DNA of 44,278 bases from a virus, in the UHGV virus genome UHGV-0261880; one strand, 5' to 3'. The translations under genes were made by a program, and so were the position numbers. Below are positions 2,394-38,541 of this stretch, piece after piece. Numbering within the stretch: position 1 is the stretch's first letter; each line of letters starts with the position of its first letter. The notes beneath the pieces are model-generated. The model was not told the origin of the DNA and made no database searches. It was given only the letters and a program-made list of their open reading frames with translations.

Positions 2394-2759
2394 TTATCGC
2401 CAAAATTCAATCTCCGTGTACGTGTCTCTGAGGTCCGCCAGCCTGTCAAGCCGTACCTGACGTGACGCAAGCTCGCAATGGCTGACCATCCCGTCGAAGT
2501 AGACTCCTGCGTGCCACACGATACGACCGCCACGGCGATACCCCATAAGCACCGCGCAGAAGTTTTCAGGCTTATCAATTTTCGTAAGCCCCTTCGTGTC
2601 CCGGCGGCCTTCGTCAAACGCTTCGTTAATCGCCGTTGGGCTTGTAACGTCGAACGCCGGTGTTTCTAACCCGGCATCCGCCCGCACAATTCGCACATGA
2701 TGCCAGCAATTGCGCTTGCGAAAGTCGTAAGGTATGCCCGTGTAGTCGTTAATGTTCAT
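2394..2759 (-). CDS. Tail assembly protein, NlpC/P60-type peptidase (lambda K-like)
   Basis: 121 aa; Cys in NCWHH and downstream His in WHAGVY resemble the NlpC/P60 Cys-His pair; position between minor tail proteins and J-like gene. Confidence 0.55.
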   Translation of the reverse strand: MNINDYTGIPYDFRKRNCWHHVRIVRADAGLETPAFDVTSPTAINEAFDEGRRDTKGLTKIDKPENFCAVLMGYRRGGRIVWHAGVYFDGMVSHCELASRQVRLDRLADLRDTYTEIEFWR

Positions 2760-3286
2760 GTGGTCAACAGGCCGCGTAATAACGGTATCTCTTTAGGTGT
2801 CATCAGTATACCAGTGCTTCGTTGGTGCAGCATAGGTGTACCAACATCTGCGGAGAACTCGCCTTTCTCCTGGTTGATAGCCTGCAACTCGTACACGACC
2901 GGGCCGTCAGCCGGATAAGACAGGTCGGTGCTGACGTAACGGCGGAAGACGAACTTAGGCAACTCAGTATTGCTCATCGGGATTTTATCCATCTCATCAT
3001 CCAGTTGATTGAGGATATCCGGTAAAGTAAACGTCGTAGTCTGGTCCATATCACTGTTGTTAGCCGCTCCCGACGCCTCCATCGGGGTTGGCTCGAATGT
3101 TATTGCTTCGCCCGTCTCCAGTGTTGCTGTAAGTTCCTGCAGCCCGCGAACAAGATAGTACGTCTTTGACAGCAACGGGTGGCTGATTTGCAACGTGATG
3201 TAGTCCATCTCGCCGTCGGGGTTTGAGGCCAGTTTACGGCGATAGGCGGCTTCTACTGATTCCTGGCTCATTGCATCGGGTCCCAA
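2756..3286 (-). CDS. Minor tail protein (L-like position)
   Basis: 176 aa ORF overlapping its neighbours by a few nt in the tail module downstream of the tape measure; call by synteny only. Confidence 0.45.
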   Translation of the reverse strand: MGPDAMSQESVEAAYRRKLASNPDGEMDYITLQISHPLLSKTYYLVRGLQELTATLETGEAITFEPTPMEASGAANNSDMDQTTTFTLPDILNQLDDEMDKIPMSNTELPKFVFRRYVSTDLSYPADGPVVYELQAINQEKGEFSADVGTPMLHQRSTGILMTPKEIPLLRGLLTT

Positions 3287-3768: not shown

Positions 3769-6095
3769 TACTTGAACCCCGGCGCGTTTCTTGTGGCCTT
3801 GCGGGCCTTGCTAATCTTGCTGTTGCTGTTCTGCAAAGATGCGGCAACTTGCTCCTCGATGATAATACGCAGACGGCCTTCATCATCTTGCTCAGTGGAT
3901 ACGTTGCCGATTTGAGAACTCGTGTTGTTTACGATAGTAACATTAGATGGCCCGGAAGAAGACCCGTTTTGCCCCATAATTTCTTTCATCTGCTGTGCGG
4001 TGCGAACACGCGACGCACCAGCTGGCATGATAACTTCTGGTTTACCACGTTCTGCGATGGTGGAAGCCTGCCCAGCGGACAACTGACCGCCCTGCTCACG
4101 CGCCGAGCGGATTTTGGCGATATTAGCCAGCCCCGCGGCAACGGCAGTAGCCGCGGCAACCGGCGCCAGGAATGGGCCGACAACAGGGATGGCAGCCGTT
4201 GACTTATATGCCTCGATAGCTGATGTGTACGTGGCGATAGTTGCCTGCGCAATAGCAAACGCTTTATACGCGGTGGACGCCTCGCCAAATGCGGTTTTGG
4301 CATTAGCCGCCATGTCTCCGAAGGCATCTCCGGTGGCTTTGGCGCGCTTCATTGAATACTGCTCATCCAGGGCTAGGAGCGCCATCTGGTACTGTTCGGC
4401 GTTAATTATGCCGTCTGCCATGTATTTTGAGATGATATTCGCTTTTTGGGACTGTTGTATTTCCAGAAGCTCAAGCTCAGTAGCGTTCTGGCCCATAATC
4501 TGCGCCATGAAGTCGTCGCCTTTCTGCTGCTTTTCCTGGGCTTCTTTTCTTTTCTTATCCAGTTCTTCCTGTCGGGCCTGCTCGGCGGTGAGCATAATCT
4601 GCGTTTTGGCGTTTTCGTACTGCTGCTGGCTTATAGTTCCAGCGCGGTTGAACTCTTCAAGTTTCGCCAGTTTCTGCTCTTCTGCCGCTGTAATACGTGA
4701 AATTTCGTCTCCAGTTGTGCGGTCGACAGTAGCGAGGAAATCTTCCGCCGCTTTTTTCTGACGTTGTGCCGCCGTTTCTTCGCGTTTGGCTTGTGCCGCC
4801 AGGCGTTTCTCGTTCGATTTAGCCTCTCGGTCTGCCTTCGCTTTTTCGGTCGCGTCGATGCGAGCGATGTCCTGCTGCGCTTCCGTATCACGGGCGGCGT
4901 TATACGCGGCTATCTGTTCTTTGGTGACAGCTTCACGTTTAGCAAACGCCTGCTTATCCAGTTCAGCTTGCGCCCGGATGCGCTCACGGTCGCTTAAGAT
5001 GGCGATTTGCTGATTCTTGACGATAGCTTCGTTCTGTTCCTGGAACCTCTGCGTGGTTGAGTTAACGTTACGGCCGAGATTCTTTTGGGCCTCCGCCGCC
5101 GCGTTTGCCGACTTCTCCGCGTTCTCCAGTGCCGTGGCGTTCTTGTTGGCGTTGTCCGTCAGGCGGATAAGTTCCGGGTTCAACTGTTTTGTGTTACCGA
5201 GCCAGTCGGTAAACACATCGGCGATGCGACGGGCATTCTCGGCGGTTGGCTCTTTGTTAAACGCGCTCTGCGCCGCTATCATCTCCAGCGCCTGGTCACG
5301 GTTAACCCCGAACTTACTGCTAAGCTCTGCGATATTCTGCGCCAGCATGTTGACGCCTACGATGTTACCCTCGTAAGTGCCGCCGAGTTTTTCTAATGTG
5401 TCGCCTACATCCGCACCCTTAGAGACCAGTGCATCGTACTGGCTGATCGCCGACGCCGTGGAGGCTTTCCACGTTTCCCACGATTCAGCATCTTCACGAA
5501 CAGCTTTAGCGGTTTGCTGCGCGATAAGGTCCGCGTTAGCCTTAGCCAGGGCGAGTTGCGTTTCCGCGGCTTCGCGGCTAATTTGCGTAAGTTGAATAAG
5601 ACCGTCTGTCAGTTCGAGGGAGCCAGATGCCGTTTGCTGGAAAGTATCCTTTAACTGTTTCTGCGCGGCTTCGAGGTCTTTTGAACTACCTTCTGCTTCG
5701 GTTAGCGATTTGTACAGGACCCCGCCAACAGCCGACGCAAGAGCAATTACAGCCCCAAGCACCGCACCACCGGGGCCGAAAGCACCCGCAAGCTGCGAAC
5801 CTTGTTGCCCGATTGCTACGAATGCAGACGTACCGGATTGCAACTGGACTACCATGTCCTGCACCTGGAAGCCAACCTGCCCGGCAGCGTTACGGAACTT
5901 GGCAAAACCGTCGGACGCTGCTTTAGAGGTAGCGGAGTTTACTTTATTAACATCAGGCGTTAGTTTGTTTACTGCGGTATCCGCACGGTCTGCAGACGAT
6001 GCCATAGCGTCAAGCTGTTTGGCAGCTACGTCGGCACCTTCTGTTTTTACTCTGGCAATTAGGGAAGCCGTATCAGCCATCTTCTCTGCCCTCAA
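3768..6095 (-). CDS. Tail tape measure protein
   Basis: 775 aa, long Ala/Gln/Glu/Lys-rich coiled-coil-like middle, hydrophobic Gly/Ala-rich segments, position after G/T chaperones. Confidence 0.85.
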   Translation of the reverse strand: MRAEKMADTASLIARVKTEGADVAAKQLDAMASSADRADTAVNKLTPDVNKVNSATSKAASDGFAKFRNAAGQVGFQVQDMVVQLQSGTSAFVAIGQQGSQLAGAFGPGGAVLGAVIALASAVGGVLYKSLTEAEGSSKDLEAAQKQLKDTFQQTASGSLELTDGLIQLTQISREAAETQLALAKANADLIAQQTAKAVREDAESWETWKASTASAISQYDALVSKGADVGDTLEKLGGTYEGNIVGVNMLAQNIAELSSKFGVNRDQALEMIAAQSAFNKEPTAENARRIADVFTDWLGNTKQLNPELIRLTDNANKNATALENAEKSANAAAEAQKNLGRNVNSTTQRFQEQNEAIVKNQQIAILSDRERIRAQAELDKQAFAKREAVTKEQIAAYNAARDTEAQQDIARIDATEKAKADREAKSNEKRLAAQAKREETAAQRQKKAAEDFLATVDRTTGDEISRITAAEEQKLAKLEEFNRAGTISQQQYENAKTQIMLTAEQARQEELDKKRKEAQEKQQKGDDFMAQIMGQNATELELLEIQQSQKANIISKYMADGIINAEQYQMALLALDEQYSMKRAKATGDAFGDMAANAKTAFGEASTAYKAFAIAQATIATYTSAIEAYKSTAAIPVVGPFLAPVAAATAVAAGLANIAKIRSAREQGGQLSAGQASTIAERGKPEVIMPAGASRVRTAQQMKEIMGQNGSSSGPSNVTIVNNTSSQIGNVSTEQDDEGRLRIIIEEQVAASLQNSNSKISKARKATRNAPGFK

Positions 6096-6345
6096 ATATT
6101 CCGTCTAAGCCCATGATAACCTCGGCTTCGAACAAACTTATGCCGTAACCGGCGACATCACGAAACGCTACCAAATCTTGCCATTTGAGCGCATCGCGCG
6201 GGATTATAACGATAGTATCATCTGTTTCGCGCTGTAGGAATTTAATGGCACGGTATTTCTCGAACACGTCGATAAGAGAAACGGGGCATTCTGGCCCCGT
6301 CGTTTCTTTCATCTGCGGTTCTTTAATCACGCCCATTGCAATCAA
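6073..6345 (-). CDS. Tail assembly chaperone, frameshift-extension segment (T-like)
   Basis: Track ORF starts at a TTG; the same frame is open upstream across the stop of the 6435..6851 gene and is -1 relative to it. Confidence 0.45.
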   Translation of the reverse strand: MIAMGVIKEPQMKETTGPECPVSLIDVFEKYRAIKFLQRETDDTIVIIPRDALKWQDLVAFRDVAGYGISLFEAEVIMGLDGIFEGREDG

Positions 6346-6434
6346 AGCCGCCTGGTGGCCTGCCGCGATGTCGTCGAATTGCTTACGTTTCTGGCGGTCG
6401 ACAAAGCACCATTGCGCAAATTCATACAGCGCTT

Positions 6435-29217: not shown

Positions 29218-29245
29218 CGCTCCTCGGTTTCGTTTTGATAAGTGA

Positions 29246-29274
29246 ATAGTATCCTATTATATTGGGGTGTGCAA
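29246..29274 (-). promoter_or_regulatory. Sigma70-like promoter TTGCAC-N17-TACTAT with embedded palindrome (minus strand), leftward early promoter
   Basis: Minus-strand reading TTGCACaccccaatataataggaTACTATtca, 31 of 32 nt identical to the 6959 plus-strand copy. Confidence 0.5.
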
Positions 29275-30167: not shown

Positions 30168-32435
30168 ATGTCCGATGTAATTTTATCCTACTCGTGGTCT
30201 CGTCGCAACGCGCGGGCGGAGAAAAAGGATATAAACGTCAGAACCACACACACGGCAACGCTGGGCGACCTGAAAGATTTAATCCAGCCGCTTGATGCTG
30301 TCCGTGACGGAATTAACCCGAAGACCGCACCCGGTTATATCACCGCCGCGTGCGACTCCACACACAGCACCGTAAAAGACCCGGAAACAGGCGACTTTAA
30401 GCAGGCGCGTAAAGGCTTCTTCTATCGCTGCGATGCGTCTGTAAGCAAATCGTCGCTGGCGTACCTGGACTTCGACAGCACAACGCCGGAAGAGTATCAG
30501 GAAGCGGTGCGCCTGGTTAAGCGCAGCCGCCAGGCGATGTGTCTCTACACCACGGCATCACATACCGACGAGTCGCCGCGCTTTCGCGTCGTCATGCCGC
30601 TGGCCCGCCCGGTTGAAGGTGGCGACATCATCCGTGTTCGCCATGGATTACTGGAGCACTTCTTCAAAGGCATGGGCGCGGACCGCAGCGGGTTCACTCT
30701 GTCGCAGCCGATGTATCTGCCGCCGGTTGGCTCTCAGGTTATCTGGTCGCGTCGCAATGACCTGATTGACCCGGACGAGTTACTGGAAGGTATCCCCGCC
30801 GTTGATGTTAGCAGCGCATCGGATTACCAGATACCAGAAGAACTGCGCACCGCGTTTACAGACGCGTTCGAAGCACTGGCGTTTGAGTATGGCGGTATCA
30901 TGACGCCGCGCGGCCTTAAGATGCCAGCTACACCGGAACATGCAGAGAACTACAGCGACCCGACGCCGCGGCCGGATGACTTCCTGCTGTGCTTCCCACG
31001 CGAGGGATATGAAGCGCCTAACGTAACCATGATTCACGACACTGACATCACGGCAACCGAAGGCATGTCACCGAAAGAGGTGTGGAAATATGCGTGCGAT
31101 GCGACCGGGCTGCCGTTCAGTGAGGTCGCTGAGGCCATCGGTTGGGGTGCGCGTGAATCAGTTTCATGCAGTCTCGACGACCTGGAAGACGATGAGGACT
31201 CAGAGGAGGACGAGTTACCGGAGCCGGTAAAGGCTGATTTCGTCGTAGAAGGGTACATGCCGTCGGATTGCATATGGGATATTGTTGGGGAATCCGGTAC
31301 GTATAAATCATTCTATACGCTGGGGATGATGTACCTCAGCGCCGCCGGATACCGGTTTGCAGGGGCGGATACCCAGCGTTGCCACCATTTCTATATTGAC
31401 GGTGAGGGCGGCGCGGCCACACGCACACGTATCGATGCGCTCGCGGCTAAATACGGCGAGGAAGGTAAAGATTATGTACATGTTATCGACATGGGTGAAG
31501 TCGGAAAACTTAAAAGCCTGATTAAGTTAATGCGCGAAACTGCTGGCGACGAGCCAATCGGTATGGTCGCGTTCGACACCCTTAACCAGACGCTGGCCCT
31601 GACGATTGATAAGTTCGACGAGAACAGTTCATCAACGGCGATTGGCATGGGTAAAGTTATTGCCATCCTGAAAGAGGTACGCGACGCAACTAAAGCCGCT
31701 GTGGGTGTTGTCCACCATACGCCTAAGGGTGGAAAGAAAGCCCGTGGTAGCGGGGCGCTGTATGCCGGTGTTGATGTGGAGCTTACAATTGAGCGCGCAA
31801 CCGACCGTCAGATAAACGTATACCACTCGAAATTTAAGCACGGGCCACAACAGAAGACGGTTGGTATGGTGCTGGAGTCTGTACAGTTCCGTGAAGCGCC
31901 ACCGCCGAAAGAGTACCGCGCGGTTGAGTTCCTCGGTAGCACAGAGGAGTACGGCACAATCGTAAACCTCGACCTGCCAGAGCCGCACAAAGCGCTTGTG
32001 CTGATGCCGTGGGGTTTCGAGCCGTTCAAAACTGACGAGGAGAAAGAGCGGGAAGAAGGGCTGACAAAGGAAGGTAAAGAAAATGTGCGTAAAACCGTAG
32101 AGAACGCCGTCAACAGTTCGGAGGCCACGATACTGGCAGCGTTTGAACTGGCGGAGGGGACCTACAACGGCAACGAAGGTATCACGGTAGCTGCAGCGAA
32201 TAAGCTGGCACAGTCCGACCCCAACGCGAAGGCGTTTAACTCCAAAGAAGCCATAGAACGCGGGAAGATCAAGAAAATGGTTGAGGCCGGGTATCTTGTT
32301 CCAGGTACTGACGAAAACAATCAGATAATTCCAGGACGTTACAGGCTGAACACCCGAATAACGGATAACAAGATTCCGAAGACGATATACGAACCAAATG
32401 AAATGCTGACAGTGACAGAGGAGGATTTGGAATAG
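30168..32435 (+). CDS. Primase-helicase fusion (N-terminal primase-polymerase-like domain + RecA-fold/RepA-like ATPase)
   Basis: 755 aa; acidic LAYLDFD and RFRVVMPL in N-terminal half; Walker A GESGTYKS then HFYIDGEGG and VVHHTPKGG typical of RepA-like helicases. Confidence 0.65.
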   Translation: MSDVILSYSWSRRNARAEKKDINVRTTHTATLGDLKDLIQPLDAVRDGINPKTAPGYITAACDSTHSTVKDPETGDFKQARKGFFYRCDASVSKSSLAYLDFDSTTPEEYQEAVRLVKRSRQAMCLYTTASHTDESPRFRVVMPLARPVEGGDIIRVRHGLLEHFFKGMGADRSGFTLSQPMYLPPVGSQVIWSRRNDLIDPDELLEGIPAVDVSSASDYQIPEELRTAFTDAFEALAFEYGGIMTPRGLKMPATPEHAENYSDPTPRPDDFLLCFPREGYEAPNVTMIHDTDITATEGMSPKEVWKYACDATGLPFSEVAEAIGWGARESVSCSLDDLEDDEDSEEDELPEPVKADFVVEGYMPSDCIWDIVGESGTYKSFYTLGMMYLSAAGYRFAGADTQRCHHFYIDGEGGAATRTRIDALAAKYGEEGKDYVHVIDMGEVGKLKSLIKLMRETAGDEPIGMVAFDTLNQTLALTIDKFDENSSSTAIGMGKVIAILKEVRDATKAAVGVVHHTPKGGKKARGSGALYAGVDVELTIERATDRQINVYHSKFKHGPQQKTVGMVLESVQFREAPPPKEYRAVEFLGSTEEYGTIVNLDLPEPHKALVLMPWGFEPFKTDEEKEREEGLTKEGKENVRKTVENAVNSSEATILAAFELAEGTYNGNEGITVAAANKLAQSDPNAKAFNSKEAIERGKIKKMVEAGYLVPGTDENNQIIPGRYRLNTRITDNKIPKTIYEPNEMLTVTEEDLE

Positions 32436-32463
32436 GTAAAAAGAAAGGGGCATTAAGCCCCTT
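32436..32463 (-). terminator. Terminator hairpin AAGGGGC-ATTAA-GCCCCTT with U-tract on minus strand
   Basis: Overlaps the stop of the XRE gene; plus-strand A-run 32436-32444 gives U-tract for minus transcripts. Confidence 0.5.
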
Positions 32464-32668
32464 CACCTAACGCCAGCCACTTGGCGTCTACTTCCAGCAC
32501 TTCCGCCAGTTTAAACAGCGTTGCCGGGCGGACGTCCTGAGTTACTCCGAGTGCAAGCTGATTAATTGCGCCCTGAGAAACTCCCGTCAGGACAGCCAGA
32601 CGGCGCTGGGAGATGCCGAGTTCTTTACGGCGCTGTTCTACACGGATGCCTAGTTCAGATGGTTGCAT
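32453..32668 (-). CDS. XRE-family (Cro/CI-type) HTH transcriptional regulator
   Basis: 71 aa; LGISQRRLAVLTGVSQGAINQLALG is a canonical HTH_3 pattern; TAAGGAG RBS. Confidence 0.7.
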   Translation of the reverse strand: MQPSELGIRVEQRRKELGISQRRLAVLTGVSQGAINQLALGVTQDVRPATLFKLAEVLEVDAKWLALGEGA

Positions 32669-32696
32669 GTCAATTACTCCTTAGTCAGTTGATATG

Positions 32697-32712
32697 TGAA
32701 TAGTACCATATT
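32697..32712 (-). promoter_or_regulatory. Operator-like palindrome copy overlapping the -10 (TACTAT) of the predicted XRE promoter
   Basis: TGAATAGTACCATATT on plus = ...TACTATTCA on minus, ~20 nt upstream of the XRE RBS; weak -35. Confidence 0.4.
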
Positions 32713-32732
32713 AATTATTTTAGAAAAGCCCA

Positions 32733-32761
32733 TTGACAAGTGAATAGTTGGCTATTATAGT
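32733..32761 (+). promoter_or_regulatory. Sigma70-like promoter TTGACA-N17-TATAGT with embedded palindrome AATAG-ttgg-CTATT
   Basis: Consensus -35, 17-bp spacer; 32 nt upstream of the 32793 start. Confidence 0.55.
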
Positions 32762-32792
32762 TAGCCCATACCAAACGAGAGGAGAGAAACAA

Positions 32793-33302
32793 ATGTTAGA
32801 GAAATTCTTAGTATTACTGGAACGTTTCGTAGTTGCACATGAACTGATTGCTGCAAATAGTGTGAAACGCCCGGTGCCGCCGGTTGAGCGTGCAGGTGAA
32901 ATGCTTGTAGACGTGTCGGTTACGGGAGAGGTACTTGAAGTCGACCCAGGCACTGGCGTAGGTAAAGAAATCCCGGTCGAAGGTGAAGACATCGTTGACT
33001 CTAAACCGGCGGAAGAAGAGAAGCCAAAACGCAAGCCGCGTAAAGCTAAAGTAGAGGAACCTACGCCAGAGCCGGAAGAAGAGAAAGAAGAGGTTGATTA
33101 TAAGTCTCTTCGTGACCAGATTCAGGCTATCGACGACGCAATTAACGAAGGTCCGAGCGATGCTGCGTGCGACGATTCCGATGAACTGCTGGAAGAGTTC
33201 ACCGGTAAGAAGATGAAGATTGCCGCGATTAAAGATGAAGACCTGGCTGAATATCTGGAACGCCTGACGGCAATCAAGAACAAGTATTTCGAAGAAGAAT
33301 AA
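32793..33302 (+). CDS. Highly acidic protein, first gene of rightward operon
   Basis: Track ORF trimmed to ATG with GAGAGGAGA RBS; central Glu/Pro/Lys-rich low-complexity region and acidic C-terminus. Confidence 0.5.
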   Translation: MLEKFLVLLERFVVAHELIAANSVKRPVPPVERAGEMLVDVSVTGEVLEVDPGTGVGKEIPVEGEDIVDSKPAEEEKPKRKPRKAKVEEPTPEPEEEKEEVDYKSLRDQIQAIDDAINEGPSDAACDDSDELLEEFTGKKMKIAAIKDEDLAEYLERLTAIKNKYFEEE

Positions 33303-33309
33303 CTATCCC

Positions 33310-33329
33310 GCGGCCTTCGGGCCGCTTTA
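33310..33329 (+). terminator. Hairpin GCGGCC-TTCG-GGCCGC + TTTAA (weak/partial terminator)
   Basis: GC stem with short U-tract just after the 33302 stop. Confidence 0.4.
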
Positions 33330-33345: not shown

Positions 33346-33735
33346 ATGAAATACGAAGATATGAGTGATTTTGAAATTAATTGTGCAGTGGCAGTCGCAT
33401 TAGATTTGAATGAACATTTGTTCTTTCCATCTGGCGTCGATGACTTTGATAGTGATACTAATGATTCAGATATGGGGCCGGTGTGGCAAACACGAATGCC
33501 GTTTGTTAAAGGTTTTAGACCATCTAATGGTAATTTATTCAGCCCGTGCAACAACCTAGATATTACGTGGCAAATTATGACTCAAAATCATATATCGATT
33601 GAATGCGTTACGGTTAACCGACATACGTTTACGTATAAGGCGTATCACTCGGAATCGTTCACCGAAAGTACGCACGAAAACCCTCTCCGCGCAGCTATGA
33701 TTGTCTTCCTTAAAATGCAGGAGACAAAGAAATGA
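33346..33735 (+). CDS. Hypothetical protein, AT-rich gene
   Basis: 129 aa; visibly lower GC (~38-40%) than flanking genes. Confidence 0.5.
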   Translation: MKYEDMSDFEINCAVAVALDLNEHLFFPSGVDDFDSDTNDSDMGPVWQTRMPFVKGFRPSNGNLFSPCNNLDITWQIMTQNHISIECVTVNRHTFTYKAYHSESFTESTHENPLRAAMIVFLKMQETKK

Positions 33736-34004
33736 TTTATCAACTCTACCTTGCCGTGGACAGGCGGGATAACACAGAGGCTCTGTGGCTGTTGCGTGCG
33801 CCGTCGGGTGCGCACCAGATGGAAGAGATGGCGTACTTAGGCAAAGTACCGCGGCCTAAAGATATAGGCCGTCACGTGTCGCAGATTAAGCGCACGACAT
33901 TCGCCAAACCTGACTTTTATGTCTTCGAGTCGATGTATGGGTGGGCTATGCACTGCGACCATAAGACCAGACATTTAATTGACCAGTGGGAGAACAGGGT
34001 ATGA
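33732..34004 (+). CDS. Hypothetical protein
   Basis: 90 aa, coupled to neighbours. Confidence 0.45.
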   Translation: MIYQLYLAVDRRDNTEALWLLRAPSGAHQMEEMAYLGKVPRPKDIGRHVSQIKRTTFAKPDFYVFESMYGWAMHCDHKTRHLIDQWENRV

Positions 34005-35242
34005 TTCTAAAAGAACGCGGCGGTAATAACGATGTGCACTCCCTGTTGTCGCCGTCTGGGGCTAAAAAGTGGCTGGCGTGCAGTGCGTCACTGGCCTGTG
34101 AAAAAGATATCCCTAACACGTCCGGTAAAGCTGCTGTTACGGGGACCGCGTGCCACACTATAGCAGAGGTCCATCTAAACCAGTACATCAAAGGCACTGC
34201 ATTGCCGTTAGAGCGCGAAGTAGGTGCTTACGTGCTGGAAGAAGGCAAAGGTCAGATTAAGGCGCTAATCAGCCCGATGAAAGGCGCGGTACTGATTACG
34301 GCTGATATGATTGAGCAGGTTCGCAAGTACACCGACTACTGCAAAGCAATTATCGACGTCGCGACTTACGCCAAGCTGGAAATGCGCGTCAATCTTACTG
34401 AGGTATTGCATCCAGGCTATGAAGGCGTTGAGACGTTCGGGACTGCTGACCTTGTTGCCGTCCAGGAACTGGCTAACACCGACGAGCACATGCTAATCAT
34501 CGGCGACCTGAAAACAGGACGACATCGTGTCGAAGCGAAAGAAAACAAGCAGCTTATGCTTTACGCTCTCGGTGTCTATCGCCGACTCAAGAGACGTTAC
34601 AACATCACCGTGGTTCGCCTGGGCATCTTCCAGCCGTACGCCGGGGGCGCGTCGGAGTGGGACATCTCGGTTGAAGGTCTGGAACTGTTCGCTAAGTTCG
34701 CACAGAAACGCGCGCTGTTAGCTCTCGATGCGTATTTCCGTGGCAAGAAGAACCTGAAAGCGTCGGACTTCAGGCCGTCGGTCGATGGTTGTCAGTGGTG
34801 TCGGTTCTCAGAGCAGTGCGCCGCGCGTACAAAAACCGTTAATTCCGTACTGGCGGAAGAACTGGAAGACGACTTTGCGCTGGAACTGACGCCAGAGCAA
34901 CTCGTCGCTGAGTATGAGAAGTTGCCGTTGTTGCGCCAGCACATCGACAAGGTTGAGAAAGCGATGGCTGCTGCTTTGCATTCTGGTAAGAAAGTGCCGG
35001 GGTACAAGTTGGTTGAGGGCCGCCCTGGTAATCGTGCGTGGAAAGACGCAGAGAAAGTAGCAGAACTCTACGGCGACAAGCTGACTAAAGAAGTGCTTAT
35101 GGCGCCGACCGAGGCCGTTAAAGTTATACCGGAAGAAGAACTGAAAGGCTTCATTACCCGTAAGCCCGGTGCGCCATGCGTCGCAACGGCAGACGACAAA
35201 CGACCAGAGTGGAATCAGGTTAGTGAAGAAGATTTAGAATAA
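34001..35242 (+). CDS. PD-(D/E)XK exonuclease, Cas4-like (DUF2800-type) with Cys cluster
   Basis: Track ORF trimmed to ATG (MILKERGG...) overlapping upstream stop; GTADLV...IGDLKTG...QLMLYALG nuclease motifs; N-terminal Cys in LACSAS and C-terminal CQWCRFSEQC. Confidence 0.75.
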   Translation: MILKERGGNNDVHSLLSPSGAKKWLACSASLACEKDIPNTSGKAAVTGTACHTIAEVHLNQYIKGTALPLEREVGAYVLEEGKGQIKALISPMKGAVLITADMIEQVRKYTDYCKAIIDVATYAKLEMRVNLTEVLHPGYEGVETFGTADLVAVQELANTDEHMLIIGDLKTGRHRVEAKENKQLMLYALGVYRRLKRRYNITVVRLGIFQPYAGGASEWDISVEGLELFAKFAQKRALLALDAYFRGKKNLKASDFRPSVDGCQWCRFSEQCAARTKTVNSVLAEELEDDFALELTPEQLVAEYEKLPLLRQHIDKVEKAMAAALHSGKKVPGYKLVEGRPGNRAWKDAEKVAELYGDKLTKEVLMAPTEAVKVIPEEELKGFITRKPGAPCVATADDKRPEWNQVSEEDLE

Positions 35243-35246
35243 AGTC

Positions 35247-35275
35247 TTGACACCTGAATAGTTAGCTATTATAGT
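35247..35275 (+). promoter_or_regulatory. Sigma70-like promoter TTGACA-N17-TATAGT with embedded palindrome AATAG-ttag-CTATT
   Basis: Near-identical to the 32733 promoter; ~55 nt upstream of the 35331 start. Confidence 0.55.
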
Positions 35276-35330
35276 TCTAATCACTGGCCGGGCAGTTCCC
35301 GGAGTAAACTGAAAACTGAGGAATCGAGAT

Positions 35331-35954
35331 ATGGGACTGAAATTAAATCTGCGTAAAGTAAACACTGCTTGGGTTAACGTATTCGAACGCGAAAAAGACC
35401 GTGAAAACGATGATGGCTCAATCACTAAAGGCCAGTACAGCGCAACTATTATCCTGCCGTCTGACCATGCTCAAATCGATGCGCTATACGACACTGTTTA
35501 CGCTGTGGTTGAAGAAGCGTTAGGCGCAGCCGCCGCCGAGAAATGGATGAAGTCCAACTACGGCGAGGGTAAGCACATGGATAAATGCGCGATTAAAGAC
35601 ATTGCCGAGCGCGACAATCCGTTTGAAGACTTCCCGGAAGGCTTCTACTTCAAAGCGAAGGCACAGAAACAGCCGCTGATTGTAACCTCTAAAAAAGGCG
35701 AGACTCAGGTAGAGCAGGACTTCAACGTAGACGGCGAACAGATTGAAGGTGAACAGGTTTACAGCGGCTGCGTCGCTAACGTAAGCGTCGAAATCTGGTT
35801 CAGCCAGAAATACAAAGTCCTCGGCGTTAACCTGTTGGCGATTAAATACGTGGGTGAAGGTAAAGCGTTCGGCGGTTCTAAAGTCGCTGCTAGCGTCAAT
35901 GACCTGGAAGATGACGAAGAAGACGCACCGCGTCGCGAACGTCGCCGCCGTTAA
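35331..35954 (+). CDS. SSB-like protein (DUF2815-type) with acidic C-terminal tail
   Basis: 207 aa; C-terminus ...NDLEDDEEDAPRRERRRR; position between Cas4-like nuclease and DNA polymerase. Confidence 0.5.
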   Translation: MGLKLNLRKVNTAWVNVFEREKDRENDDGSITKGQYSATIILPSDHAQIDALYDTVYAVVEEALGAAAAEKWMKSNYGEGKHMDKCAIKDIAERDNPFEDFPEGFYFKAKAQKQPLIVTSKKGETQVEQDFNVDGEQIEGEQVYSGCVANVSVEIWFSQKYKVLGVNLLAIKYVGEGKAFGGSKVAASVNDLEDDEEDAPRRERRRR

Positions 35955-36013: not shown

Positions 36014-36292
36014 ATGGCAGCGGAACTTAAGAGATACAGACGCATCACATACTGCAAATTTTGTAAGGCAGAAGGTAAAAAAGTTAGAGCAATTTGGATG
36101 ACTAAATACCCTCCAGCTTACGGTGTACGAGACTGGTATAAACACTATGCATGCGAGGAGCATAAACATTTAATAGAAGACACAGACCCAGACCGGACTT
36201 GGGCAGAAATCATAGAACGCGGTAAAAACAAGAAACAAGATCGCGACGACCATCTCACAGAAGCAGACTATCAGACGTGGTACAGACTATGA
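36014..36292 (+). CDS. Small zinc-ribbon-like protein
   Basis: 92 aa; CKFCK...YACEEHKH; lower GC than the polymerase gene it overlaps. Confidence 0.45.
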   Translation: MAAELKRYRRITYCKFCKAEGKKVRAIWMTKYPPAYGVRDWYKHYACEEHKHLIEDTDPDRTWAEIIERGKNKKQDRDDHLTEADYQTWYRL

Positions 36293-38541
36293 ACACATTG
36301 CTTTACTTAGACTTTGAAACCTACAGCGACATCGGTTTGAAGAAAGTCGGTTCCTACGCTTACGCTGAACACCCGTCAACCGAAGTGCTTATCTGTACCT
36401 ATGCTTTTGACGAAGAGCCTGTGCAGGTATGGGATTGCACCGACGGCAGCGACATGCCAGGTGATTTACACCGCGCGCTACGCCGTCTGGTTAAACCGAA
36501 CAGCCGCATCAAGATGGTATGGCACAACGGCTCAATGTTCGATAGGTTAATCATGAAGCACTGCTGGGGTTTTGACATCCCGGTAAGCAACACCATTGAT
36601 ACGATGATTTGGGCGTTTCGCCACGCGCTGCCGGGTTCACTTGATGCATTGTGCGAAGTGCTGGGTGTATCTGCGGACAATGCAAAAGATAAACGCGGCA
36701 AGGCGCTGATTCAGCGTTTTTCTAAACCGACACCGAAGAACTACAAAATTCGCCGCTATACCGCCGAAACGCACCCGGACGAGTGGGCGCTGTTCATCAA
36801 GTACGCCGTCAGCGACATCACCGCAATGCGTGAAGTCTTCCATAAGCTACCACGTTGGGGTAACTCCGAGTTCGAGGACCGGGTACTGGAACTGGACCAG
36901 TTAATCAACGACCGAGGGTTTAAGGTTGACGTCGCACTGGCGGAAGCCGCGATTGAAGCCGTTGAGAAACACAAAGCGCAGTTACAGGAAGAAGCCCAAC
37001 GCAAATACGGCGGCTCGCTTACGGGTAAAGACTTTCTGCCAATTCTACGTGAACTGGCTCCTGCGCACCGCATCCACAACGCGCAGAAGTCTACGCTTAA
37101 CGACCTGTTGGCGGACGATGATTTACCGGACGACGCACGCACGATTATCGAAATGCGCCTCGGGGCCGCGTCCACAGCGTCAACGAAATATAACCCGCTA
37201 CTGTTGGGCCGCTCTTCTGACGACCGCCGTCGCGGTTGCATCCAGTATGGTGGCGCTAAGCGTACGTTACGGTTCGCAGGTAAAGGCTTCCAGCCACAGA
37301 ACCTGGCGCGCGGGTACTATCATGATGACCCGAAGAATAAAAAGAAGAAAGTACGTTATGACTGGATGTCAGAGAAGGACTGGTGGAGAGTAACACACCC
37401 ATTGTCCTACGGAATCGACCTGTTGTTTAAAGGCCGCGCGCATCGCCGTTTCGATGTAGCCAAGCTAACGGCATCGACGGTGCGTAGCTGCATCATACCG
37501 GAAGCCGGGCATAAGTTTGTCGTAGCTGATTACTCTAACGTTGAAGGTCGCGGGTTGGCATGGCTGGCGGGGGAAGAAACCGCTCTCGATACCTTCCGTG
37601 CGGGATTGGATATTTACTGTGTAACCGCGGGTAAGATGTTCGGCATGGACCCTGATTACATTCTCGAAAGCCGTAGTGACCTACGCCAGATAGGTAAAGC
37701 ATGTGAATTGGGCCTTGGCTACGCTGGTGGTGTCGGTGCTTTCGTTCAGTTTGCTAAGAACCTCGGCTTAAACCTGGTTGATATGGCTAAAACAATGGAC
37801 GGTACTTTCCCGGACCACATATGGGCGGCTACTGCACGGGGCTATGAGTGGGCGCGTATACAGGAGGCAAAGCGACCGCCGCGGCCTGGTGAAAAGGATG
37901 ATCGACCCTCGTATATTCTTGATAAGAAAGTGTGGCGTACCTGTGACGCTATCAAGCGTATGTGGCGAGAGTCACACCCTGAAACAGTAGCTTTCTGGCG
38001 AGATATTGAAGACGCAGCTATGGCGGCTATCCGCAATCCTGGCAAAGAGTTCACCGCTGGGCCGCGAGGCGTTAAGTTTTCGCGTAACGTAGAGACAGAC
38101 AACAACGGCAACAAAGTCGCCGGTTGGTGGTTGCGCATGACGCTGCCGTCGGGTCGTGTTATGTCTTACCCGGGCGTCGGATTAAGCGTGTCGAAAGAGA
38201 CAGACGAAGATGGAAAGGTGTCTACTAACGTACGCATCAAGTACCAGGGAGAAAACCAGTTAACCAGACAGTGGGGGTTCCAGTACACCTACTCCGGTAA
38301 ACTGGTGGAAAACTGTACTCAGGCGCTGTGCCGTGATTTGCTGGCTAATGCCCTACTGAACGTCGAAGCAAACGGCTACCCGATTGTACTTCATGTTCAC
38401 GATGAGATTATCTGCGAGACACCAGATTTACCGGAATACAATGTTGCAGAGCTAGAGCGATTGATGTGCGAATTACCGGAATGGGCTGAGGGATTCCCTC
38501 TTGTAGCGGAAGGTGCGGAGATGAAGCGTTATGCCAAGTAA
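36277..38541 (+). CDS. DNA polymerase, family A, with 3'-5' exonuclease domain
   Basis: 754 aa; exo motif LYLDFETYS; polymerase motif A VVADYSNVEGRGLAWLAGE and motif C LHVHDEIICE. Confidence 0.9.
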   Translation: MVQTMNTLLYLDFETYSDIGLKKVGSYAYAEHPSTEVLICTYAFDEEPVQVWDCTDGSDMPGDLHRALRRLVKPNSRIKMVWHNGSMFDRLIMKHCWGFDIPVSNTIDTMIWAFRHALPGSLDALCEVLGVSADNAKDKRGKALIQRFSKPTPKNYKIRRYTAETHPDEWALFIKYAVSDITAMREVFHKLPRWGNSEFEDRVLELDQLINDRGFKVDVALAEAAIEAVEKHKAQLQEEAQRKYGGSLTGKDFLPILRELAPAHRIHNAQKSTLNDLLADDDLPDDARTIIEMRLGAASTASTKYNPLLLGRSSDDRRRGCIQYGGAKRTLRFAGKGFQPQNLARGYYHDDPKNKKKKVRYDWMSEKDWWRVTHPLSYGIDLLFKGRAHRRFDVAKLTASTVRSCIIPEAGHKFVVADYSNVEGRGLAWLAGEETALDTFRAGLDIYCVTAGKMFGMDPDYILESRSDLRQIGKACELGLGYAGGVGAFVQFAKNLGLNLVDMAKTMDGTFPDHIWAATARGYEWARIQEAKRPPRPGEKDDRPSYILDKKVWRTCDAIKRMWRESHPETVAFWRDIEDAAMAAIRNPGKEFTAGPRGVKFSRNVETDNNGNKVAGWWLRMTLPSGRVMSYPGVGLSVSKETDEDGKVSTNVRIKYQGENQLTRQWGFQYTYSGKLVENCTQALCRDLLANALLNVEANGYPIVLHVHDEIICETPDLPEYNVAELERLMCELPEWAEGFPLVAEGAEMKRYAK

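Follow-up and report, generated by a model that had tools for sequence, protein, structure and literature searches.

The 44,278-nucleotide virus genome UHGV-0261880, referred to below in its entirety as the window, carries at positions 32793-33302 (+ strand) a gene for a strongly acidic protein of 169 residues. What appears to merit follow-up is not the acidity of this protein: judged from sequence, the family of this protein, taken with its remote homologues, appears to accompany the DUF2800 nuclease as a conserved and as yet undescribed companion in the duf2800-gp2.5-polA module, which is very common. We put the chances at about even that it would be an accessory, non-enzymatic component of the replication-recombination machinery that comprises the DUF2800 nuclease, a gp2.5-like single-stranded DNA-binding (SSB) and annealing protein, and the family A DNA polymerase, PolA. 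We favor this reading because the gene is linked to the nuclease gene across bacterial phyla, appears to be frequently coupled to it in translation, has core status in the phage subfamily Guernseyvirinae, and encodes a protein with an adaptor-like build. The present analysis establishes the domain architecture, the pattern of selection, the family membership, and the conservation of gene linkage across bacterial phyla. A replication accessory factor had been the second option offered by the initial annotation of this DNA, and it is supported by the conserved gene context.

Family membership and linkage to the DUF2800 nuclease

The open reading frame (ORF) is present as first described, beginning with the ATG at 32793 and ending with the stop codon at 33302. 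We take this ATG to be the real start because the orthologues all begin at the same peptide, MLEKF or MLDKF; the upstream TTG at 32748, used in a mechanical listing of ORFs, is rejected on the same ground. The initial annotation saw no specific homology, which proves to be wrong. The protein matches the phrog_3127 profile (PHROGs v4) over its full length (E = 6.6e-67, 226 bits, residues 1-169 against profile positions 1-177 of 178), and there are 2,322 homologues at E <= 1e-3 in a collection of 5.8 billion proteins. By profile match, then, the protein is a member of phrog_3127, a catalogued family without an assigned function. All 39 diverse members in our family alignment (A4) match the same profile. 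No match was found in Pfam (E up to 0.1), in NCBIfam or among PDB sequences.

How is the family distributed? An exhaustive hidden Markov model (HMM) search of 1.84 billion cluster representatives matched only 96 clusters, and by these searches the family is compact and phage-restricted. The window phage is a Kagunavirus-like siphophage of the Guernseyvirinae: the DNA around the gene is 89-94% identical to that of many Escherichia Kagunavirus phages, and more distantly similar to that of Salmonella Jerseyvirus phages of the same subfamily. With tblastn the gene was found in 486 phage records, to be compared with 449 records that carry a nuclease at least 60% identical, so that by these numbers it ranks with the ordinary core genes of the Guernseyvirinae, a group that has been sampled well. 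In the Kagunavirus K1B4 transcriptome the orthologue is gene 003, as mapped by coordinates, size and neighbors in the supplementary table. The distant members P0260, P0256 and P0231, searched against isolated phages, and P0221, searched against IMG/VR, gave nothing. The 486 records call the product hypothetical or "13.88 kDa late protein", a name that goes back to UniProt entry Q9T1Z8 of Salmonella phage MB78, which is also the best structural (BFVD) and sequence match, at 71% identity. "Late protein" is a label copied between records; it could not be traced to expression data or to an explanatory paper in the accessible literature. Among 185,579 bacterial and archaeal genomes scanned, one copy turned up, probably contamination; the gene is thus essentially absent from bacterial genomes, and the idea of a prophage or bacterial copy is rejected. 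The single copy (L009) lies on a 19-kb scaffold of a Bacteroidota assembly, Taishania pollutisoli NZ_JACVEL010000022.1, with a Guernseyvirinae-like replication module; identity is 73% for the acidic protein and 76-79% for the nuclease, SSB and polymerase. Most likely this scaffold is phage contamination of the assembly.

The gene order repressor (on the - strand), acidic protein, variable small ORFs, DUF2800 nuclease, gp2.5-like SSB and PolA is kept in about 75 of 81 related loci, including those of relatives that are only 30-43% identical, and Dhillonvirus (HK578-like phages such as BASEL phage KarlBarth) has a family member in the same arrangement. In the window the end of the gene at 33302 is separated from the nuclease start at 33986 by two small ORFs. 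One of them, NinX-like, is found in a minority of related loci only, and the other, of phrog_4965, is common in Kagunavirus and missing from many Jerseyvirus-like loci; because both come and go, the spacing between the gene and the nuclease varies. Two rearranged modules bear on which neighbor matters. In a distant uncultured phage (L007) the homologue is found mid-operon, between a methyltransferase gene and the genes for the nuclease and polymerase. In locus L080 the polymerase and helicase genes are on the opposite strand, and a protein with the same N-terminal helix, here joined to a different linker and an unrelated C-terminus, is still encoded directly upstream of the nuclease and SSB. 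Since the gene stays beside the nuclease in these rearranged modules, the nuclease is its constant neighbor.

The nuclease occurs in 1,428 of 50,697 phage records, and among its carriers are candidates for therapy against Salmonella, E. coli, Klebsiella and Staphylococcus. The three-gene duf2800-gp2.5-polA module appears in a review of Firmicutes annealing proteins, which places it in phages of Gram-negative hosts as well, and a fourth gene goes unmentioned in that account (PMC8093625). The DUF2800 protein of a Dhillonvirus is an active PD-(D/E)XK nuclease that resembles the resection nucleases AdnA and RecB; it triggers a retron defence, plaques form without it, and what it does for the phage is not known (preprint 10.64898/2026.07.14.737667).

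Does the linkage extend beyond these close and distant relatives? The gene at the 5' side of the nuclease was inspected in a sample of ten other phages with a DUF2800 nuclease. Eight of the ten have, at or beside the 5' end of the nuclease gene, a member of a network of families comprising phrog_408, phrog_18562, phrog_3127 and phrog_5053. Thus the stop codon of gp16 of Staphylococcus phage JS02 (Triavirus; phrog_408) overlaps the nuclease start; a Paenibacillus phage protein matches phrog_18562, phrog_3127 and phrog_408; a protein of Streptococcus phage Javan135 matches phrog_5053, phrog_408 and phrog_18562; and a protein of Bacillus phage LY1 has two C-terminal domains (phrog_408, E = 3.5e-23). 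Further network members are found in a Phocaeicola (Bacteroidota) phage, in E. coli phage 606R2, and in a Vibrio phage, where the gene is located one gene further upstream. These seven proteins fall in PHROG families that members of the acidic-protein family match too. Upstream of the nuclease of the Salmonella phage NSP, a Chivirus (L084, PQ569626.1), positions 2664-3089 (+) encode a protein of 141 residues with an N-terminal helix, a linker and a C-terminal domain. In several of the sampled phages the gene runs into or up to the start codon of the nuclease, an arrangement suggestive of coupled translation. As a separate matter, the NSP record has an implausible, Phe-rich ORF of the - strand (CDS0009) annotated over the family-like gene of the + strand, and, judged by sequence, is probably mis-annotated on the wrong strand.

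The relationship at the protein level resides in the C-terminal domain. When the A4 alignment was compared by hhalign with an alignment (A7) of the C-terminal domains of seven of these nuclease-upstream proteins, a match of 96.3% probability (E = 1.9e-9) was obtained over residues 101-163 of the window protein. An HMM built from A4 only finds the Bacillus (6.7e-10), Paenibacillus (8.4e-10) and Streptococcus (3.9e-6) proteins, and also that of Vibrio. Direct comparison with a low-diversity alignment of Staphylococcus proteins only was not significant (E = 0.18), so that the connection to phrog_408 depends in part on intermediates. From these profile comparisons we conclude that the C-terminal domain is homologous to those of nuclease-upstream proteins of Staphylococcus, Streptococcus, Bacillus, Paenibacillus, Bacteroidota, Vibrio and Chi-like phages.

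Protein architecture and a proposed function

The description of the product as acidic and of low complexity holds. The peptides quoted in the initial annotation are found in the translation, the net charge is -21 (45 Asp and Glu versus 24 Lys and Arg, with 41% of residues charged), the isoelectric point (pI) is 4.45, and about half of the chain (some 45%) is predicted to be disordered. Among the ORFs of the window of at least 100 residues, none exceeds this one in net negative charge per residue. Complexity is lowest in residues 73-97, with an entropy of 2.4 bits, and charge is segregated along the whole protein more than in shuffled sequences (kappa 0.27 versus 0.19; 1.8% of shuffles reach 0.27).

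Cross-genus alignments and AlphaFold models divide the protein into three parts (Table 1). The N-terminal helix is near-invariant across genera, and stays so when identity over the remainder of the protein falls to 30-40%; in Klebsiella phage 37P2 the helix is 84% identical versus 37% for the whole protein. Hydrophobic residues make up about 60% of the helix surface, beside a narrow charged stripe with heptad spacing (mean hydropathy 1.02, hydrophobic moment 0.67), so the helix must lie buried within an oligomer or a partner. Its codons differ between genera by many synonymous changes, from which it follows that selection acts on the peptide. An overlapping DNA or RNA element, the other conceivable cause of such N-terminal conservation, is ruled out by the same synonymous changes, and no Rfam match was found. 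The linker is made of blocks of opposite charge (45% charged residues, kappa 0.31 versus 0.19 in shuffles). It includes a basic patch with acidic runs on both sides, and variants of this patch, KPKRKPR, KRGRP or KRTR, are retained in relatives that are only 30-40% identical overall. The C-terminal domain is modeled with confidence (mean predicted local distance difference test score, pLDDT, 88.8; predicted template-modeling score 0.75), and some family members have two copies of it.

Does the basic patch bind DNA? One proposal would be that the protein is a DNA-binding factor that initiates or organizes replication, with an AT-hook-like patch that holds AT-rich DNA of an origin or promoter while the acidic domain recruits the helicase-primase or the polymerase. 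The AT-hook core is Arg-Gly-Arg-Pro with flanking basic residues. Canonical cores of this kind are present in some relatives (KRGRPAK in L066 and KRGRKP in Tsm2), the patch is conserved across the Guernseyvirinae lineages, and the gene heads the replication operon and adjoins the helicase-primase gene. In the window, however, the patch KPKRKPRKAK lacks the GRP core and is not an AT-hook, the homologues from Staphylococcus and Streptococcus phages have a weak patch or none, and the protein as a whole is strongly net negative. A repeated origin-like element beside the gene was not noticed, no search aimed at it having been made. Moreover, the helicase-primase allele can be swapped without change in the acidic protein: loci with a helicase-primase only 33% identical keep an acidic protein 73-81% identical, and on this basis co-variation of the two proteins is rejected. 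We regard a DNA-binding initiation factor as improbable.

The accessory-component reading can be put in mechanistic terms. The protein would act as a flexible protein-protein adaptor or regulator, and would be neither an enzyme nor a DNA mimic. Its very hydrophobic N-terminal helix would self-associate or insert into a conserved partner, the disordered charge-block linker would provide reach, with the basic patch perhaps touching DNA or the acidic tails of replisome proteins, and the acidic three-helix domain would dock on a protein of the module, most plausibly the nuclease or the SSB/annealase. One buried helix, a flexible linker and a small docking domain would be a build typical of an adaptor. 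The C-terminal domain of λ Red-beta is a three-helix adaptor that binds λ Exo and the C-terminal tail of SSB (PDB 6m9k, 8tfu). A bolder version may be entertained, which we consider doubtful: the family would be an undescribed, near-universal fourth subunit of the module, oligomerizing through the N-terminal helix and coupling the end-resection nuclease to the SSB/annealase through the C-terminal domain, a trans-acting equivalent of the Red-beta domain. If there is indeed a conserved, co-translated small partner, it would be an obvious missing piece and could help to account for the way the module resects and anneals DNA; it could also help in the design of recombineering tools from the module and in learning which phage components are sensed by defence systems.

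Several points weigh against the accessory-component reading. Caulobacter phage Jess A has a DUF2800 nuclease and no homologue detectable upstream of it, and in Pectobacterium phage MA12, where nothing is annotated upstream of the nuclease, an HMM search of the ORFs found no family member. The DUF2800 nuclease is dispensable for plaque formation by a Dhillonvirus, so that an accessory dedicated to it might be dispensable too. A test of co-variation failed. Locus L001 and Dhillonvirus had suggested that the allele of the N-terminal helix (RFVVAHE or RGVVALE) goes with the C-terminal cassette of the nuclease, as L001 has the Dhillonvirus-type RGVVALE together with a Dhillonvirus-like cassette; the correlation fails because four loci (L017, L035, L037 and L075) pair that cassette with the common RFVVAHE helix. 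The helix allele tracks neither the nuclease cassette nor the helicase-primase allele. The physical partner, the oligomeric state and any effect on nuclease or annealase activity are inferred. Finally, a factor aimed at the host and protecting recombination intermediates, considered further below, would also be consistent with the gene linkage.

Promoter region and neighboring genes

Table 1. Features in and around the gene for the acidic protein (positions in the window)
Feature	Position	Strand	Basis or remark
Helicase-primase	30168-32435	+	first in local gene order
HTH_3 (Cro/CI-type) regulator, 71 residues, divergent	32453-32668	-	PF01381, E = 2.3e-12; repressor PHROGs
Second, weaker copy of promoter/operator motif	32689-32718	+	44 bp upstream of main promoter
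Sigma-70-type promoter-like site, TTGACA-17-TATAGT	32733-32761	+	11 of 12 consensus positions
Putative operator palindrome, AATAG / CTATT	32743-32747 / 32752-32756		promoter spacer, between -35 and -10 hexamers
Ribosome-binding site GAGAGGAGAG	32777-32786	+	strong; ends 6 nucleotides before ATG; read from sequence
Coding sequence of acidic protein, 169 residues, phrog_3127 member	32793-33302	+	ORF and profile match
N-terminal amphipathic helix, residues 2-22, LEKFLVLLERFVVAHELIAAN	32796-32858	+	predicted helix; most conserved part
Disordered linker, residues 23-100	32859-33092	+	pLDDT < 50 for residues 30-92; many indels
Basic patch KPKRKPRKAK, residues 77-86	33021-33050	+	acidic runs on both sides
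C-terminal acidic three-helix bundle, residues 101-169	33093-33299	+	pI 4.2; ends KYFEEE
GC hairpin GCGGCC-UUCG-GGCCGC, then UUUA	33310-33325	+	8 nucleotides past stop; minimum free energy -16 kcal/mol
NinX-like ORF	33346-33735	+	between acidic protein and nuclease
phrog_4965 ORF	33732-34004	+	between acidic protein and nuclease
DUF2800 / PD-(D/E)XK nuclease (phrog_69)	33986-35242	+	domain and PHROG matches
gp2.5-like single-stranded DNA-binding and annealing protein	35331-35954	+	PF10991
ORF of 92 residues			between gp2.5-like SSB gene and polA
Family A DNA polymerase	36277-38541	+	last core gene of duf2800-gp2.5-polA module

The initial annotation placed an operator-controlled promoter at 32733, and at the sequence level this is reasonable, given the match to consensus and the palindrome in the spacer. 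The arrangement is not confined to this site. A 16-nucleotide extended motif, TTGAYANGTGAATAGT, has four copies in the window, all on the + strand (at 29235, 32689, 32733 and 35247), versus 0.13 expected; all four carry the palindrome AATAGnnnnCTATT in the spacer, and the consensus they have in common is TTGAyAnnTGAATAGTnnnCTATTAtA. The copies extend over 29235-29262, 32689-32718, 32733-32762 and 35247-35276 (+), that is, one upstream of the helicase-primase operon, two before the gene for the acidic protein, and one directly past the nuclease stop, before the SSB and PolA genes. The four copies look like a small regulon of promoters with one common palindromic operator. The divergent helix-turn-helix (HTH) regulator, whose gene adjoins that of the acidic protein in almost all related loci, is the presumed binder of this operator.

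Is the acidic protein the first product of a rightward operon, as the initial annotation had it? In the window it is. Several relatives have a small extra ORF before the gene, and in distant phages the homologue is found mid-operon, so the statement does not hold for the family. The slot between promoter and gene is a hotspot for small accessory ORFs (L001 3393-3572; L006 1879-2106; L003 3681-3941; L004 3817-3972), among them one annotated as "putative restriction alleviation Ral protein" in phage GZMU_E2010 and a Cys-rich ORF of 75 residues in Bas70; in the window the slot is without an accessory ORF. These observations bear on the proposal that the acidic protein is a transcriptional switch factor, either an antirepressor or a Cro-like early regulator, that antagonizes the divergent HTH repressor. 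Such a role would suit the first ORF past a promoter and operator, directly opposite a repressor gene, an arrangement that is conserved in Guernseyvirinae and Dhillonvirus. Domain searches of the protein, however, found no HTH or other DNA-binding domain, and the promoter-proximal slot is held by another small ORF in many relatives. In other phages (L007 and those of Staphylococcus, Streptococcus and Paenibacillus) the homologue occupies the middle of an operon, at a distance from any repressor gene, and its coupling is to the nuclease. A switch factor thus seems highly improbable to us.

The GC hairpin that follows the gene could be an RNA-stabilizing or weakly terminating element, judged by its sequence; it folds no better than shuffled sequences do (z-score -1.02), and a terminator scan made no call there.

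Some features of the neighboring proteins may be recorded here. The C-terminal third of the nuclease (the 34900-35200 region of the window) is a mosaic cassette, with at least five alleles exchanged among near-identical phages, and helicase-primase alleles that are only about 33% identical are found in phages whose neighboring genes are more than 90% identical. The helicase-primase (32412-32435) and the DUF2800 nuclease (35219-35242) end in the same peptide, [ST][DE][DE]DL[EASN], as TEEDLE and SEEDLE. This end peptide is conserved across Guernseyvirinae and Dhillonvirus (L003, L004, L005, L008 and most of L009-L081) in otherwise unrelated proteins, and its sequence suggests a docking site on one common partner. 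SSB tails are normally purely acidic. The tail of the gp2.5-like SSB (35892-35954) has an acidic block followed by an arginine-rich end, DLEDDEEDAPRRERRRR; in relatives (66 loci) the tails have two or three alternating acidic and Arg blocks, and the unrelated SSB of L007 has an Arg-rich end too. In the bolder version of the accessory reading, with the acidic protein as a flexible hub, it could be that the [ST][DE][DE]DL tails of the helicase-primase and nuclease, the acidic-Arg tail of the SSB and the charge-block linker of the acidic protein bring about a charge-driven assembly for replication and recombination. In the KarlBarth record (L008, MZ501088.1) the coding sequence bas17_0049 (5803-6429, 208 residues) begins 66 codons before the conserved MFEQIVNL start of its homologues, and its start codon has probably been called too early. 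Identity of the acidic protein with the anti-Tmn protein of Dhillonvirus was also considered and is rejected, as anti-Tmn has an alpha+beta fold and is found in Dhillonvirus only.

Comparison with anti-RecBCD proteins, DNA mimics and remote homologues

Known inhibitors of RecBCD are encoded just upstream of phage exonuclease genes, as in gam-bet-exo of λ and 5.9-6 of T7. Might the acidic protein be such an inhibitor, acting on host RecBCD or AddAB in the manner of Gam or gp5.9, with the acidic domain as the blocking surface, and thereby protecting linear intermediates of replication and recombination? The position of the gene mirrors theirs, the C-terminal domain is small and very acidic (pI 4.2), and no Gam-like gene is annotated elsewhere in the genome of the BASEL phage Bas70. 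In addition, Dhillonvirus, which carries the family in the same position, is robustly restricted by P2 OLD, a system triggered by RecBCD inhibitors, and the authors of that study regard recombination loci as holding a store of RecBCD inhibitors yet to be discovered (preprint 10.64898/2026.07.10.737580). The same preprint reports, on the other side, that OLD is also triggered by replication intermediates without RecBCD inhibition, and Bas70 is little affected by Old, with an efficiency of plating (EOP) of 1.2 and about 0.2 (PMC11990801 S1 Data). No similarity in sequence or fold to Gam (PDB 5MBV), gp5.9 or Abc2 is found. The C-terminal domain is conserved among phages of RecBCD hosts, of AddAB hosts and of Bacteroidota, and its conservation across host end-processing types points to a conserved phage partner and not to a divergent host target. 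Some homologues, moreover, are not acidic. The pI of the remote homologues runs from 4.6 to 7.8 (Vibrio 7.8, Paenibacillus 5.5), so that acidity is not a conserved property. Taken together, a Gam-like inhibitor strikes us as unlikely, yet as the foremost rival of the accessory reading.

The first option of the initial annotation was a DNA mimic of the Ocr or ArdA type, which would block type I restriction-modification (RM) enzymes or other DNA-binding defence proteins. It was prompted by the high acidity and the early, promoter-proximal expression suggested by the sequence. Ocr folds throughout into a rigid, elongated dimer, with carboxylates on its surface that imitate bent B-DNA. The acidic protein is not a rigid, fully folded dimer of this kind: nearly half of its chain is predicted to be disordered, it carries a conserved, strongly basic patch, and in its wider family the pI reaches 7.8. 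For Ocr there is no Pfam match at E up to 0.1, and a profile search of PDB sequences at E up to 10 listed no Ocr (PDB 1S7Z relatives); for ArdA, Arn, Gam or other mimics there is no match in Pfam, PDB sequences or fold. In particular, the protein has neither the Pfam ArdA domain nor the three-domain elongated fold of ArdA (PDB 2W82).

The restriction assay that had been suggested as a check on EcoKI is available in published form for a relative, and the data refer to phage Bas70, with an orthologue 80% identical overall, rather than to the window phage or to the isolated protein. The N-terminal helix, the basic patch and the whole C-terminal domain of that orthologue are identical to those of the window protein. 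The EOP of Bas70 on EcoKI is 1.3e-5 and 5e-6, i.e. the phage is restricted about 10^5-fold, and the EOP is 1e-3 on EcoCFT_I, 1.5e-5 on EcoRI, 8e-6 on EcoRV and 5e-5 on EcoP1 (PMC11990801 S1 Data), so that strong restriction extends over systems of types I, II and III; the Kagunavirus isolates Bas70-76 "display a high sensitivity to RM systems" (BASEL extension, PMC11990801). Because Bas70 is so strongly restricted despite its orthologue, an Ocr- or ArdA-like function against the tested RM systems is very unlikely, and a mimic directed at any DNA-binding defence protein is hardly credible. The initial annotation had stated that its mimic proposal would fall if there were no anti-restriction phenotype and the protein turned out to be a conserved one of replication; essentially that picture emerges from the Bas70 data and the gene context. 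The practical message is a negative one: acidity is here a feature of the lineage and not evidence of an anti-restriction DNA mimic.

How, then, does the protein compare with known systems? Like Ocr (T7 gp0.3) and ArdA it is acidic and expressed early; Ocr and ArdA are rigid and fully folded, whereas the window protein is half disordered with a basic patch and has no relationship to them in sequence or fold. Like λ Gam and T7 gp5.9 it is a small, acidic, helical protein encoded directly upstream of a phage exonuclease; unlike them, its family reaches phages of hosts without RecBCD, and resembles neither in sequence or fold. With the proteins of phrog_408, phrog_18562 and phrog_5053, all of which are functionally uncharacterized, it shares an N-terminal helix, a charged linker, a C-terminal helical domain of about 55 residues with the motif lL..fGvkklsdl..e.y.eF, and the position upstream of the nuclease. 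The N-terminal helices of those proteins are not alignable with the LLERFVVAHE helix, their linkers are unrelated, and some of them have two C-terminal domains or extra N-terminal domains.

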